Under the pieces are notes generated by a model. That model was given only the letters and a program-made list of their open reading frames with translations. It had not been told where the DNA came from and made no database searches. A stretch of DNA of 45,814 bases, from sequence record MG050172; one strand, written 5' to 3'. The position numbers were made by a program, and so were the translations under genes. This DNA comes from Escherichia phage DTL. Below are positions 1 through 45,814 of this stretch, piece by piece (position 1 is the first letter of the stretch; every line of letters starts with the position of its first letter).

Positions 1-249
1 ATGATAGTCGAAACAGGACGCGCCGCCGTATGGGCGCACTGTGGAGAGGCGGGGTTGCAGGATGACATTAAGAAGATTTCTCGCTTCTTTGACATTAAAG
101 ATATCAGCGTTGTTTTCAATGGTAAATTCTCCTACATGGATGAACGCCCAAGAAAATACGTAAGAGTTAAACCAGGTGTCAGAATTGATGTTAATGAGTT
201 CCTTAAATCTGAGGGGTTCAAGTTTAAGATAACGAAGCCTAAGGATTAA
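1..249 (+). CDS. hypothetical protein, possibly 5'-truncated at window edge
   Basis: 82-aa ORF from the track; no recognisable motif. Confidence 0.3.
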   Translation: MIVETGRAAVWAHCGEAGLQDDIKKISRFFDIKDISVVFNGKFSYMDERPRKYVRVKPGVRIDVNEFLKSEGFKFKITKPKD

Positions 250-6568: not shown

Positions 6569-7093
6569 TTATCTCCCGTGGTTTTTGTGGAATTTACCAT
6601 TCGCAAACTCAGCTCTAGCAGCAATTGCATCATCTATGTTGTCATAAAAACCAAGATGATATCTTTTCTTTTCGTATCTGGCGTAGGCGGCGAACTTTCC
6701 TGTTCGGCTCATGTAGCAAACACCAGTAACTCCGGTCTTGTTGTCAGACCTTCTTTTGGCGTTCCTTGTGTTTTCTGACCACGTTGCCAGCCTTAGGTTT
6801 GATATGTGGTTGTTTGATTTATCACCATCTATGTGGTCAACAACCATTTCATCTGGAACCTTTTGACCTGTCTCTATCTCGTAGACTATCTTATGAACAC
6901 AGTATAGCTTTGCGTGTATGCCAACTTGATGATACCCACTATTTGAAAGCTTGCATCCGCATGGCTTATTTGCGTGTCTTTTATTCCACCTCTTTAAGTC
7001 CCAATCTATATTGTTAGTGTGAGTGTCGATCGTTCTCTCCTTGAAGTAAGGGACTCCATCAACAAGATAAATATATTTAGAGAAGTCCATCAC
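6569..7093 (-). CDS. HNH homing endonuclease
   Basis: Motif VVDHIDGDKSNNHISNLRLATWSEN plus AP2-like C-terminus. Confidence 0.8.
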   Translation of the reverse strand: MMDFSKYIYLVDGVPYFKERTIDTHTNNIDWDLKRWNKRHANKPCGCKLSNSGYHQVGIHAKLYCVHKIVYEIETGQKVPDEMVVDHIDGDKSNNHISNLRLATWSENTRNAKRRSDNKTGVTGVCYMSRTGKFAAYARYEKKRYHLGFYDNIDDAIAARAEFANGKFHKNHGR

Positions 7094-18094: not shown

Positions 18095-18784
18095 ATGGCT
18101 TACACCGAAGTTAAGGCTATCAATGCAGATAGCGGACGATTCAATGCACTACTGCAAGCAGCAATCACGGCAGGCTTTCAGCCAGTAAGTAAAATCACGG
18201 TAAATGGCTCACAGTCATATTCCCTCGTTGTTGCTAAGGGTGCTGATAGTTCAATAACTGAAGCTAAGGTGATTACTTTCACAAATATGCGCAAGCTGTT
18301 CGAAGCCATTGAGGCCGCGTCTAATGACGGATTTACCATTGACACATCAAGCCTGAACCTTACCTCTGGGCAGTTCTTTGCTTACGCATATAAAGGCAGT
18401 TCTGGTGGCGCAGCTTCAGTAGCCTGGGGTGATGTGACCGGAAAGCCAGCAACTTTTGCGCCGATTGTTGGTAATGGAGCAAACCAAGCCATGGCTGGCG
18501 ATAAGACGTTGGCTAACATTGGTGGTGTAGTTCCTGTGTCTGGACTTCCCGCCGCAAGCACCTCGGCGGCTGTGGTTATCCAGATTGGCGCTGGTGCAGT
18601 TCAAGCCATGCCTGGCAATAAGTTTGTTGCAGGTGCGGCTGTCGCTAACGTTGGAACCCAGGCCGTGGCTGGCGCTGACGCTGCTGAAGTGGCCACCTCA
18701 GCTACCACGGCAGTTAACGCAGTAGCCAGTAAAGTAAACGACCTTCTCGCGCAGCTTCGAGTAGCTAAGATTATCGCAAGCTAA
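18095..18784 (+). CDS. hypothetical Ala/Gly-rich structural protein with internal repeats
   Basis: Repeated AMAGDK / AMPGNK / AVAGAD segments; RBS AAGGAG. Confidence 0.35.
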   Translation: MAYTEVKAINADSGRFNALLQAAITAGFQPVSKITVNGSQSYSLVVAKGADSSITEAKVITFTNMRKLFEAIEAASNDGFTIDTSSLNLTSGQFFAYAYKGSSGGAASVAWGDVTGKPATFAPIVGNGANQAMAGDKTLANIGGVVPVSGLPAASTSAAVVIQIGAGAVQAMPGNKFVAGAAVANVGTQAVAGADAAEVATSATTAVNAVASKVNDLLAQLRVAKIIAS

Positions 18785-21815: not shown

Positions 21816-22472
21816 ATTGCTCATTTATCAAATGGCACGCAGGTCTTCGTAGAAGGCTCTCGCGGAGCTGCAATTAACGTAACTGCAATTTCTAACGCAG
21901 TTACCCCTGTTTTAACCGTAGCTGACGGCTCTGGTATTGAGGTTGGCAATCACCTCCTGTTTACCGCGTCTTCCTCTACACTGCTTGCTGACAAGCATGT
22001 CCGAGTTACCGCAGTTACTGGTACATCAATCACAGTTGAAGGTATCGATACTTCTAGTACAACAAAATTCCCGGAGGGGTTGACTGGTGAAGTGGTTAAG
22101 ATTCTTTCCTGGTTCGAGGTTCCATGCGTTCAAGATGTATCCACTGACGGCGGCGAGCAGCAGTTCGTTAGCTTCCAGTGCTTGTCAGATGACCGTGAGC
22201 AGCAGATTCCGACTTATAAATCTGCCGTAACAAACACGTTCACCTTTGCTCATGAGTACACCAACCCGGTTTATCCGGTTCTGCGTAACTACGATGAGTC
22301 AGGGCAGGTTGTCGCAATTCATCTGTATGTTCCACGCGCACAGGAGATGCGTTTGCAGTCCGGCACTATCGCTTTCAACGACACGCCAACCATTGGTGTT
22401 AACGAAATCGAAACGGTGTCCATCTCGGTATCCATTCGTGGTCGACTGTCATCTGTGGCAGCACCAGCTTAA
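21816..22472 (+). CDS. major tail protein (start codon uncertain, apparent ATT)
   Basis: Frame open from 21789 to 22472 with no ATG/GTG/TTG until 22080; strong RBS GGAGGT 5 nt upstream of ATT 21816. Confidence 0.5.
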   Translation: MAHLSNGTQVFVEGSRGAAINVTAISNAVTPVLTVADGSGIEVGNHLLFTASSSTLLADKHVRVTAVTGTSITVEGIDTSSTTKFPEGLTGEVVKILSWFEVPCVQDVSTDGGEQQFVSFQCLSDDREQQIPTYKSAVTNTFTFAHEYTNPVYPVLRNYDESGQVVAIHLYVPRAQEMRLQSGTIAFNDTPTIGVNEIETVSISVSIRGRLSSVAAPA

Positions 22473-26546: not shown

Positions 26547-26897
26547 ATGGCTATTGATACATTTAATTACTGCACTCAAGTCCAAAATGGAGGCGGCTCA
26601 TTTACCAACGCAAGCAATGTAAGGAGTGTTTCATTCGGAAATGGATACAAGCAAATTGGAAGTGGAGGATATAACACAAACGTCAGAACCTACAACATGA
26701 CATATACCAACACTAACTGGAAGGAAGTGTTAGACTTCTGTTTTACGCACATCATTACACCTTTTGCGTGGACCACACCGCAGGGTGAGATTAAGTTGTT
26801 TGTTGTTTCTCAGGATAGCATTAGCGTCACACCAGTCAGCAAGGTGATTCAGACTGTAAGCATGCAATTCGTGGAAGTTTTTAGCTCAATGCGTTAA
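26547..26897 (+). CDS. minor tail protein (lambda M-like)
   Basis: 116 aa directly after tape measure. Confidence 0.6.
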   Translation: MAIDTFNYCTQVQNGGGSFTNASNVRSVSFGNGYKQIGSGGYNTNVRTYNMTYTNTNWKEVLDFCFTHIITPFAWTTPQGEIKLFVVSQDSISVTPVSKVIQTVSMQFVEVFSSMR

Positions 26898-26924: not shown

Positions 26925-27813
26925 TTGGAGAAAATCATGTTAAGTACAAAGTTTGAAAATCAGTTGCAAAGCCTTTTTCCTGGCGAGATTGTGACATTAA
27001 TCCAGGTTGACGGAACCTCTTTTGGCAGTCTCGTTTATTCGTTCCACAATGAGAACATTTCATACACACCTGAAGAGATCATGCTAGCCCAAATGAATGG
27101 CGAGCCACTACCAGAGAAAACCATCACCTTTCGTGGTGAAGAGTACGGGCCTCGCCCATTCGGTATCTCGGGCATTAATATGACCTCTGACGGAAAAGCC
27201 AACAAGGTTACACTAACAGTATCAAACGTAGACCAGCGCATTAGCGCATTGATTAGAACATACAACGGACTTGTTAAAGCTAAGGTTACCATATGGATTA
27301 CCACGAGAGATAACATCAATGAAGACGGAAGCATTGCTGATGGTGACTATCGCAGATTTGTTTACTTCATTGAGCGACCGAAGCAGGTTGATTACAAAAC
27401 TGCGTCATTTGAGCTTAGTAGCCCGATGGATATGGATGGCATTTACATCCCTGCCAGACTTGTTTGACTATCGCAGATTTGTTTACTTCATTGAGCGACC
27501 GAAGCAGGTTGATTACAAAACTGCGTCATTTGAGCTTAGTAGCCCGATGGATATGGATGGCATTTACATCCCTGCCAGACTTGTTCAATCGGTTTGCTAT
27601 TGGGCGTCCAGGGGCTGGTATCGTAGCGGTAATGGTTGCGGCTATGCTGGTAATAGATACTTCAACAAGGATGATGAGCCTGTGTCAGACCCCTCATTAG
27701 ACTTCTGCGCAGGAACTGTTAACAGTTGCAAAATTAGGTTTGGAGAGAATAATCAGCTGGACTTTGGTGGTTGCGCGGCAGCAAGTCTTCAGGCTAAAGC
27801 GAATCAATCATAG
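26925..27813 (+). pseudogene. minor tail protein (lambda L-like) frameshifted by a 121-bp tandem duplication
   Basis: Track ORFs 26925..27467 and 27271..27813 both encode DYRRFVYFIERPKQVDYKTASFELSSPMDMDGIYIPARLV in different frames. Confidence 0.6.
27344..27585 (+). repeat. perfect tandem direct duplication, 2 x 121 bp
   Basis: 27344..27464 and 27465..27585 identical base-for-base on hand comparison. Confidence 0.85.
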
Positions 27814-27866: not shown

Positions 27867-28364
27867 TTGGAGACAAAAATGAACTGGAATGAAATTTTCG
27901 AATACAGAGATGGCAAGATCTATTGGAAAGTTAGCCCTGGCAGGAGGGCTAAGGTTGGTTCGGAAGCTGGATCAAATCAAATAAAAGGGTATAGATTTGT
28001 GAAATTTCACGGAGTTTTATATATGACACACATGGTTATTTGGGAGATGCATAACTGTGAAATACCGCATGGAATGGAGGTTGACCATTTAAATCACATT
28101 AGGGACGATAACAGGATAGAGAATTTAAGAGTTGTTACAAAGTCAATTAATCAGAGGAATGCATCTAAAAGAATTGATAATAAAAGCGGTTTTACAGGCG
28201 TTTCTTGGTATCCCAAATATTCAAAGTGGAATGCTTACGCGACAGTAAATTCCAAGAGGTTTAATCTTGGTTACTTTGAATCAAAGCAAGATGCCTGTGT
28301 GGCTGTTAAAAAATTTAGGTCCATAAATTATTTTCATAAAAACCATGGAGTTGATTTATGTTAA
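27867..28364 (+). CDS. HNH homing endonuclease
   Basis: Motif HMVIWEMHNCEIPHGMEVDHLNHIRDDNRIENLR; inserted between L-like and K-like tail genes. Confidence 0.8.
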   Translation: METKMNWNEIFEYRDGKIYWKVSPGRRAKVGSEAGSNQIKGYRFVKFHGVLYMTHMVIWEMHNCEIPHGMEVDHLNHIRDDNRIENLRVVTKSINQRNASKRIDNKSGFTGVSWYPKYSKWNAYATVNSKRFNLGYFESKQDACVAVKKFRSINYFHKNHGVDLC

Positions 28365-35109: not shown

Positions 35110-35583
35110 ATGGAATACAAACTCTACTTCAATTACGACAATGGAAAGTTGATATGGAAAGTCAAAAAGAAATCAGGAAATCCGGGCTCAGAGGCTGGTA
35201 GTGTGATGAGGGATGGTTACATCATGGTTGGTTTAAATAGAAAACTAATTCTTGCTCACAGAATAGTTTGGGAAATGCTTAAAGGCCCGATACCTGAAGG
35301 TATGGAGATTGATCATATTAATCATTGTAGGTCAGACAATAGGATAGAAAACTTAAGGATGGTGAGTAAGCCGATAAATCAAAGAAATAGATCGAGATCA
35401 AAAAATAACACAAGCGTATTCACGGGAGTTTGTTGGAGTAAGTCAGCTTCAAAGTTGGTCTCATCAATGAAAGTTAACGGGAAAAAAATTCATCTTGGAT
35501 CGTTCGATGAAATACAAGATGCAATAGCTGCAAGAAAGTCAGCAAACCAAAAGTATAAATTTCACAAAAATCATGGAGAATAA
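35110..35583 (+). CDS. HNH homing endonuclease
   Basis: Motif HRIVWEMLKGPIPEGMEIDHINHCRSDNRIENLR. Confidence 0.8.
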   Translation: MEYKLYFNYDNGKLIWKVKKKSGNPGSEAGSVMRDGYIMVGLNRKLILAHRIVWEMLKGPIPEGMEIDHINHCRSDNRIENLRMVSKPINQRNRSRSKNNTSVFTGVCWSKSASKLVSSMKVNGKKIHLGSFDEIQDAIAARKSANQKYKFHKNHGE

Positions 35584-37311: not shown

Positions 37312-37734
37312 ATGCACGTAATTACTGGTCAGATTCGCCGCGCTCCATTCACTAAAGAAGGTCAAAACGCAAATGGTAACTGGAAAATGTTTGCGGTTGA
37401 CTTGAGTGAGAGATACAAGGATAAAGATGGGCAAACTCAGTACACTAACTATCGCGCTGTGCTTTTCGCTAAAGAGTCAATGCTAGATTGGTACAATGAA
37501 GCATTTCAAGAGGGTAAGGTTGTTAGCGTTAGCGCTGAAAGTCTGGCTGTTGATGTTCGTGATAAAGATGGTAAGACTTACGTAACGATTAACATGAATA
37601 ACCCTCGACTTGAGTTTAGTCAGCGTGGTGAAGGCGGTCAGCAACAACAGAAACCGCAGCAACAACAACAGCAGCAACAACAGCAGCGACAGCCGCAACA
37701 GCAAAACACATTCGACGGAGATATCCCATTCTGA
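37312..37734 (+). CDS. single-stranded DNA-binding protein (SSB)
   Basis: OB-fold-like N-terminus, Gln-rich linker, C-terminal DGDIPF tail. Confidence 0.8.
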   Translation: MHVITGQIRRAPFTKEGQNANGNWKMFAVDLSERYKDKDGQTQYTNYRAVLFAKESMLDWYNEAFQEGKVVSVSAESLAVDVRDKDGKTYVTINMNNPRLEFSQRGEGGQQQQKPQQQQQQQQQQRQPQQQNTFDGDIPF

Positions 37735-40967: not shown

Positions 40968-41443
40968 TTGCTTAACCCGTGATTTTCGTGAAAGTTGTAT
41001 TTTCTCTCTGCTTCAATTCTTACTTTATACGCCTGCTCTGGAGTATCGAAGTTCCCAAGGTGTAGCTGCTTGCCGTCAACCTTGATGTGAGCCTTAAATT
41101 TTCCGTGATTTAGCTTTGCCACTCCACAATAACCAGTTGTTGATAAAACGCTAATCTTGCAATTTCTTGAGTTACCTTGATTTGTTGTTACTCTTAGGTT
41201 TTCTATTCTGTTATCTAATTTGTTATGGTTTATATGATCAATGTAGTCGCCATTTTGAAGTTCTCCATTAAACATCTCCCACACAACTCTATGTACATAA
41301 GTCCTAAAGCCATTAACAGACACTTTGTAATAGCCAGATGTAGATAGTGAGTTGCACTCATCGCCAACCTTAACACGTCTTGCAGTGCTAATCTTCCAAT
41401 GCAATTTGCCATCTACATAGTAAAAATAATCATGCCAGTTCAT
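40964..41443 (-). CDS. HNH homing endonuclease
   Basis: Motif HRVVWEMFNGELQNGDYIDHINHNKLDNRIENLR. Confidence 0.8.
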   Translation of the reverse strand: MNWHDYFYYVDGKLHWKISTARRVKVGDECNSLSTSGYYKVSVNGFRTYVHRVVWEMFNGELQNGDYIDHINHNKLDNRIENLRVTTNQGNSRNCKISVLSTTGYCGVAKLNHGKFKAHIKVDGKQLHLGNFDTPEQAYKVRIEAERKYNFHENHGLSK

Positions 41444-44066: not shown

Positions 44067-44540
44067 ATGAATTGGAATGACATTTTCGAGTATAGTGATG
44101 GGCAGCTATTCTGGAATGAGAAGGGAAAAAGCCGCAAGATGGGAGTGGCGGTTGGTGCCATTCGTGACAATGGTTATATCCAGGTAGGGTACAATCGCAA
44201 GCTGTACCTTGCTCATCGCATCGTGTGGGAAAAGCATAATGGGCCGATACCTGAGGGCATGATGGTAGATCACATAAACCATATTAGAGATGATAATAGG
44301 ATAGAAAACCTTAGATTGGTAAATTGCAAGGACAATACAAGAAACACCAGCATAAGGTCTGACAACAATACTGGTCACCACGGTGTTTGCTGGTGTAATC
44401 GCAGGCTTAAGTGGTACGCAAGGATAAATATTGACGGTAAAAATAAGTTTTTAGGTTACTTCATAACAAAAGCTATGGCCATAGAGGCAAGAAAGCAAGC
44501 CGAGAAGTTATATGGATTCCACGAAAACCATGGAGTTTAG
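44067..44540 (+). CDS. HNH homing endonuclease
   Basis: Motif HRIVWEKHNGPIPEGMMVDHINHIRDDNRIENLR. Confidence 0.8.
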   Translation: MNWNDIFEYSDGQLFWNEKGKSRKMGVAVGAIRDNGYIQVGYNRKLYLAHRIVWEKHNGPIPEGMMVDHINHIRDDNRIENLRLVNCKDNTRNTSIRSDNNTGHHGVCWCNRRLKWYARINIDGKNKFLGYFITKAMAIEARKQAEKLYGFHENHGV

Positions 44541-45471: not shown

Positions 45472-45693
45472 ATGGCTATCTTTACATTTGAGAATCAATG
45501 GGAAGCATTCAAGTTAATGGCGATTCAGGAATTGCTTAAGGCTGGTTATAAAAAACACGCTCCATCACTGGCTGAATGCCTGGATTACAGTTTCGAGGAA
45601 GACTACCTGAACGCCGACATAGAGACATGGCGTGACCGTATGGTTGCAGACATTGCGGAAATGAAGAAAGATTGCCCGGAGGATTTTGAATAA
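45472..45693 (+). CDS. hypothetical protein
   Basis: Internal ATG with RBS GGAG in track ORF 45325..45693; N-terminal extent uncertain. Confidence 0.3.
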   Translation: MAIFTFENQWEAFKLMAIQELLKAGYKKHAPSLAECLDYSFEEDYLNADIETWRDRMVADIAEMKKDCPEDFE

Positions 45694-45814
45694 TGAAAAT
45701 TGTAGACAAAGAAATGTTTGAAATTGCACAGATTTATGCAAATCAGTCTGTTAAATATAGTGACAATTACCGCTGGATGTTAGCTAAAGAATACCTGAAA
45801 ATGGCATACGGATT
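45693..45814 (+). CDS. hypothetical protein, 3'-truncated by window end
   Basis: ATG overlapping previous stop (TAATG); open to the window edge. Confidence 0.3.
   Translation, partial: MKIVDKEMFEIAQIYANQSVKYSDNYRWMLAKEYLKMAYG

Follow-up and report, generated by a model that had tools for sequence, protein, structure and literature searches.

The window analyzed here is the whole 45,814-nucleotide stretch deposited for Escherichia phage DTL (accessions MG050172 and NC_047893, as given in papers), and the paper behind MG050172 is that of Halter and Zahn 2018 (PMC5816109). Exact protein look-ups place the record under taxid 2048061, species Loudonvirus DTL. DTL is T1-like and virulent, and its genome was determined by 454 sequencing (PMC5816109). 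Across the region of interest, the gene order is TMP, Phage_min_tail, L, an HNH gene, Prok-JAB/NlpC_P60, Lambda_tail_I, and a J-like gene; L thus follows an M-type gene and precedes a K-type gene, as part of a lambda-like tail-tip cassette. The features around L are as follows:

26547 to 26897, plus strand: M-type minor tail gene (Pfam Phage_min_tail), upstream of L; GenBank ATW61817
26937 to 27467, plus strand: ORF1, the N-terminal 176 residues of an L-type tail-tip hub protein and a TGA created by the repeat junction
27344 to 27464, plus strand: copy 1 of a 121-bp unit, L residues 137 to 176 in the frame of ORF1
27465 to 27585, plus strand: copy 2 of the 121-bp unit, the same 40 residues in the +1 frame
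27466 to 27813, plus strand: continuation in the +1 frame, L residues 137 to 251 and a TAG stop (27811 to 27813)
27879 to 28364, plus strand: HNH_3 homing-type endonuclease gene in the slot between L and K (Pfam HNH_3, E value of 4e-19); GenBank ATW61818
28358 to 29116, plus strand: K-type tail gene (Prok-JAB and NlpC/P60), continuing the M-L-K-I-J cassette

Tandem Repeats Finder reports positions 27344 to 27585 as a tandem repeat with a period of 121 bp, 2.0 copies, 100% matches, and 0 indels, and direct string comparison finds 27344 to 27464 equal to 27465 to 27585 base for base, so that the exact duplication described in the original prediction stands. The match cannot be extended by even one base to the left or to the right. 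It is the sole exact repeat of at least 25 bp in the 45,814-bp window, which excludes chance as its origin. The junction between copy 1 and copy 2 that is novel to the record reads ...CCAGACTTGTT followed directly by TGACTATCGCAG..., and the joins between unit and flank expected from reads of a single copy are GCTGATGG followed by TGACTATCG and CTTGTT followed by CAATCGG. The repeat borders show none of the microhomology looked for in slippage-type duplications, in which the first bases of the unit recur directly after it (0 bp of extension); this is weak evidence in itself, since real events can also have 0 bp.

Because 121 equals 3 × 40 + 1, ORF1 runs into a TGA at the repeat junction. The ORF starts at ATG 26937 or TTG 26925, and its stop (27465 to 27467) is formed where the last T of the codon frame of copy 1 meets the first bases of copy 2. 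As had been predicted, the remainder of the protein continues in the +1 frame through 27813, and both frames encode an identical segment of 40 residues (DYRRF...PARLV). Deleting one copy yields a single ORF of 251 amino acids from the ATG or 255 from the TTG, in agreement with the roughly 255-residue product that had been anticipated. The assignment of the gene as L-like also holds. The deduplicated 251-residue protein matches Pfam Phage_tail_L (PF05100) with 153.4 bits against a cutoff of 25 (E value of 6e-45) over model positions 2 to 204 of 206. It aligns with T1 gp36 (9l9p_J) over residues 5 to 247 (E value of 5.6e-113) and with lambda gpL (8iyk_L) over residues 61 to 240 (E value of 2e-18); in the T1 alignment, all gaps are of single residues, and the duplicated segment is free of gaps.

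L homologs are structural tail-tip hub proteins; in T1, three copies of the hub protein sit at the tail tip, and the C terminus of this protein forms an iron-sulfur-binding domain (PMC11945409). Four cysteines (C180, C194, C217, and C224), whose iron-sulfur role we take from the same study, are invariant in the alignment of L homologs and fall in the part of the DTL gene encoded in the +1 frame. ORF1 alone lacks the Cys-rich, iron-sulfur-binding C-terminal domain, since these cysteines are encoded past the break. DTL L therefore shares with lambda gpL and T1 gp36 the PF05100 match, the C-terminal cysteines, and the placement within M-L-K-I-J. As deposited, however, it differs from both in having no single ORF, with residues 1 to 176 in one frame and residues 137 to 251 in the +1 frame.

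Relatives of DTL carry the gene intact. In DNA alignments, a clean gap of 121 columns falls exactly at the repeat in all five relatives compared (two ENA metagenome contigs whose L is 98% identical, vB_Ec-G8, ACG-M12, and 2725-N35), each of which has one copy of the unit. At the protein level, L homologs of 245 to 261 amino acids are encoded by single ORFs in 120 out of 120 cases among the best 120 of 145 matches (E value of ≤1e-40). When 47 conserved proteins of 2725-N35 were searched against the window with tblastn, L was the sole gene split across frames, and the other genes of this set showed neither a frameshift nor an in-frame stop. The repeat junction was absent from IMG/VR, apart from the DTL record itself, and from the JGI metagenomes, and a search of both for a near-identical phage returned the DTL record alone. 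Exact copies of DTL proteins were found in sources derived from NCBI only, with none in a Logan or ENA assembly. The repeat is thus absent from the relatives and independent assemblies searched, as an end-overlap artifact would lead one to expect.

The first base of the record bears on how the sequence was handled. Two features meet at the origin:

45693 to 45814 continuing into bases 1 to 4, plus strand: last gene (rtp58 homolog, 126 bp in Table 1 of the DTL paper), cut by the ends of the record
1 to 249, plus strand: first ORF of the record, with its ATG at base 1 overlapping the stop of the origin-spanning gene

The record ends in TT and begins with ATGA, in which the ATG starting at base 1 overlaps with the stop codon of the gene before it. 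The identical 126-bp gene, together with the 4-bp overlap, is intact in vB_Ec-G8. An arbitrary break by an assembler would fall at the first base of a gene with a frequency of about 0.15% (67 ORFs in 45,814 bp). Since the last gene is interrupted at the record ends and intact in vB_Ec-G8, the origin was deliberately reset to a gene start, and since it was reset, the old contig ends must have been joined. The DTL record was rotated after gene calling; the genome was thus treated as a circle and its origin moved after assembly, as would be expected if an end overlap lies behind the repeat. Such treatment is in keeping with the circular permutation reported for four T1-like relatives (PMC4070988). 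The redundant ends of circular contigs are known to need trimming, as described for Metavir 2 (PMC4002922), as a caveat for PhageTerm (PMC5557969), and elsewhere (PMC5418689).

The phage was annotated by RAST, and its maps were drawn in Geneious (PMC5816109). Table 1 of the DTL paper runs in the same orientation as the window, with ORF 1 at 249 bp, ORF 2 at 252 bp, and ORF 3 at 1137 bp, and the printed sizes of 15 other ORFs whose best match is ACG-M12 are reproduced exactly in the window. ORF 46, a "minor tail protein," is listed at 756 bp, and ORF 67, the origin-spanning gene, at 126 bp (PMC5816109). The former equals 877 minus 121, the exact length of a single-copy L gene. There is no 756-bp ORF on either strand of the record, and both ORF 46 and ORF 67 are unreadable from the linear record. 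The size entry of ORF 46 is the size of the single-copy gene. A possible route to this size is a template-guided frameshift correction by RAST that skipped one copy, which would fit a real duplication just as well.

The E value printed for ORF 46 is harder to place. In a calibration of locally computed against printed E values, 13 of the 14 comparable ORFs were offset by +0.6 to +1.8 log units and one by +3.3; ORF 48 was left out of this comparison, as its local value underflowed to 0.0. On this scale, the truncated ORF (176/180 amino acids, 357 bits) would appear in the table with an E value of about 1e-122, and the intact L protein (251 amino acids, 508 bits) with about 1e-180 to 2e-179; for comparison, ORF 48, with 506 bits, is printed as 1e-179. 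The value printed for ORF 46, 3.00E-130, fits neither the intact nor the truncated prediction, and for this reason we no longer treat the 756-bp entry as unambiguous evidence that the ORF was intact. The printed value was not reproduced by a read-through translation, by a 756-nucleotide window ending at the true stop, or by truncated frameshift products, nor by blastx and tblastn on 756, 877, and 889 nucleotides. The table contains other character errors, including YP_006987353.1 for YP_006987853.1 (a change of 8 to 3, two rows below), YP_39890.1, and 4.00E-3C. By analogy with these, the entry may be a misprint of 3.00E-180, again with 3 in place of 8.

We consider it likely, with a probability of roughly three in four, that the duplication is an in silico artifact of sequence finishing that is not present in the phage, namely an untrimmed 121-bp overlap of contig ends that was internalized when the contig was circularized. 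T1-like genomes, being circularly permuted, assemble as a circle, and the single linear 454 contig would have had an identical stretch of 121 bp at either end. If this contig was closed and its origin moved to the ATG of ORF 1 with the overlap left untrimmed, the two end copies would have become an internal, perfect tandem repeat in gene L, with the old contig ends presumably at 27464/27465. The true genome would then be 45,693 bp long and carry one intact L gene of 756 bp. The paper gives the provided contig as 45,814 bp and does not document a 45,693-bp version (PMC5816109). Such an overlap explains the identity of the two copies, the lack of microhomology at their borders, and the uniqueness of the repeat, exactly two adjacent copies with 100% identity being what was found. 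It also explains the 756-bp entry, and why a highly virulent phage should have a broken essential gene in a record that is otherwise clean.

The original prediction had offered three alternatives: an assembly artifact, a recent inactivating duplication in a defective phage, or a variant rescued by recoding. The first is favored by the circular resetting of the origin, the 756-bp entry, the essential nature of the gene, and the comparison with relatives, and the last fared poorly, as set out below. The DTL repeat shares several features with the untrimmed redundant contig ends known from Metavir 2 and PhageTerm: a direct repeat in two exact copies, roughly as long as a read or k-mer, a circle-type assembly, no counterpart in relatives, and an origin reset that places the end copies side by side. 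In contrast to these cases, in which the redundancy is terminal, the DTL repeat is internal and would be linked to the old ends only through the proposed rejoining. Furthermore, DTL was assembled from 454 reads, and overlaps of a fixed k-mer length are not to be expected from such data. We initially regarded the odd length of 121 as a sign of a k-mer overlap of the SPAdes-style de Bruijn type but dropped this argument, as 454 assembly is not based on k-mers. An argument from generally poor sequence quality was also dropped, since a search for 454 homopolymer frameshifts elsewhere in the record found none.

The main competitor to a finishing artifact, which we regard as unlikely, is a real and very recent inactivating duplication present in a large share of the genomes in the lysate, with the defective mutant complemented by coinfecting wild-type phage. 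The sequenced DNA came from a crude fermenter lysate without plaque purification (PMC5816109). DTL forms plaques and was grown to titers of up to 1e13 PFU/ml (PMC5816109), which implies a high multiplicity at which defective genomes can hitchhike. Additionally, 454 reads are long enough to span 242 bp, so that a correct assembly of a real duplication would have been possible, the perfect identity of the copies suits a very recent event, and the cleanliness of the rest of the record suggests that the assembly was otherwise careful. However, a mutant without a replication advantage would have to be in the majority to reach the consensus, and the border microhomology that is normal for slippage-type duplications is missing. 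The authors' own table gives the single-copy size, the junction is found in no other record searched in IMG/VR and the JGI metagenomes, and the manual handling of the record as a circle is a simpler cause. If the duplication were nevertheless real, it would represent an unusual survival of an essential structural gene after a frame-breaking duplication.

It is quite improbable that the duplication is real and also tolerated, either through a +1 frameshift at GUU UGA C that would yield an L protein of 291 residues or through the assembly of two fragments, residues 1 to 176 and a restart product. The shift that would be needed is indeed +1 and lies exactly at a UGA C stop, the three hub copies per virion (PMC11945409) mean that a low efficiency might suffice, and the predicted 291-residue product aligns along its length to ACG-M12 L with 487 bits. 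The closest known parallel is the +1 frameshifting of prfB (RF2). UGA C is the stop context used by prfB, in which the P-site codon is CUU. DTL L shares with prfB the property that a +1 shift at UGA C would restore the downstream frame. In contrast to prfB, the DTL sequence reads CUU GUU UGA C, with GUU rather than CUU in the P site, and re-pairing on UUU would leave a mismatch in the first position. There is no Shine-Dalgarno-like motif in 27381 to 27560 that could act as the upstream stimulator, the relatives conserve no shift site and have one uninterrupted ORF, and the product would contain an internal repeat of 40 residues. For a restart, the earliest start codons available in the +1 frame are ATG 27547 and 27553, at least 80 nucleotides past the stop, and neither has a ribosome-binding site. 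A comparable insertion was seen in none of the 120 homologs listed, and there is no hint of an evolved signal. Rescue by recoding, as raised in the original prediction, thus failed every sequence test applied (codon, Shine-Dalgarno motif, restart, and conservation). The repeat would also double a beta-hairpin predicted in the N-terminal domain (E139-151 and E155-161), although the model of the closest homolog from which this hairpin is taken has a mean pLDDT of 54, and about 70 to 75 in that stretch, and is too weak to speak to whether a repeat would be tolerated. Were this reading true, an essential and tightly packed tail-tip protein would tolerate a large internal repeat or a split.

The slot between L and K is an insertion site with variable content: nothing in four ENA contigs, where it spans 10 bp; an EB49 gp37-like gene in both vB_Ec-G8 and ACG-M12; an HNH gene in DTL; and, by annotation only, a Rha gene in IME253. 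L is intact in all relatives with these differing contents. The HNH gene, which had been placed about 280 bp downstream of the repeat in the original prediction, is confirmed as HNH_3 and starts at 27879, 294 bp past the end of the repeat. The 45.8-kb genome contains six paralogous HNH_3 genes (approximately 1794 to 2153; 6572 to 6994, minus strand; 27879 to 28364; 35110 to 35577; 40976 to 41443, minus strand; and 44067 to 44540).

Homing repair proceeds by gene conversion from a donor allele and is not known to produce tandem duplications. The earlier suggestion that the repeat arose when a double-strand break introduced by the neighboring endonuclease was misrepaired, which the short distance and the variability of the slot might favor, is accordingly the least probable explanation and close to negligible: homing repair would copy the donor allele rather than duplicate a segment, relatives with other inserts in the slot keep an intact L, none of the other HNH_3 paralogs in DTL has a duplication beside it, the identical copies show neither a conversion tract nor border microhomology, and there is no sequence link between the repeat borders and the boundary of the HNH insertion.

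The biological importance of the 121-bp duplication is small. The consequences of a finishing artifact for reference data are broader, as the type genome of Loudonvirus DTL probably carries 121 spurious bases, which leaves DTL without an annotated essential tail-tip gene in GenBank, RefSeq, and IMG/VR. The missing L affects pangenome and core-gene analyses of the Drexlerviridae, as well as automated screens for pseudogenes or recoding. The database record MG050172 probably needs correction. An exact two-copy tandem repeat that is unique in its genome, in a record with a reset origin, is a usable signature of this type of error.

The annotation of L reflects the broken frame. Accessions pass straight from M (ATW61817) to the HNH gene (ATW61818), and no possible L translation (176, 180, 180, or 251 amino acids) was found in a collection of 15 billion proteins; together, these observations indicate that GenBank and RefSeq hold no DTL L protein. 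The supplement of the DTL paper, which we checked for L, covers CRISPR cassette construction only (PMC5816109). The paper reports 67 ORFs, and the accessions from ATW61778 (ORF 1) to ATW61837 (ORF 66) amount to 60 proteins, such that the deposited record lacks a protein for seven of the ORFs in the paper, L and ORF 67 among them. The 41-residue product of the origin-spanning gene is accordingly missing from the GenBank proteins.

Several other annotations in the DTL record could be refined. The major tail protein gene (21816 to 22472, plus strand) aligns to residues 1 to 216 of the 218-residue 2725-N35 homolog over 21816 to 22463. The GenBank entry for this protein, ATW61812, has only 130 residues (22080 to 22472), and its start was apparently called too far downstream. 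An EB49 gp53-like gene at 18095 to 18781 (plus strand) gives one unbroken alignment of 229 residues with no stops. In Table 1 of the paper, gp53 is the match of two separate ORFs, of 450 and 177 bp, which looks like a split in the annotation and not a defect in the sequence. ARAGORN identifies a tRNA-Arg gene (anticodon TCT) at 12077 to 12154 on the plus strand that the annotation seems to have overlooked; the paper's ORF 26 (12092 to 12352) overlaps it, and a published comparison describes DTL as lacking the tRNA-Arg gene found in its relatives (PMC8421802). Lastly, an imperfect CAG/CAA array encoding a Gln-rich tract lies at 37639 to 37708 (plus strand), near the 3' end of the ORF at 37312 to 37734, which the paper lists as a homolog of a single-stranded DNA-binding protein (PMC5816109).
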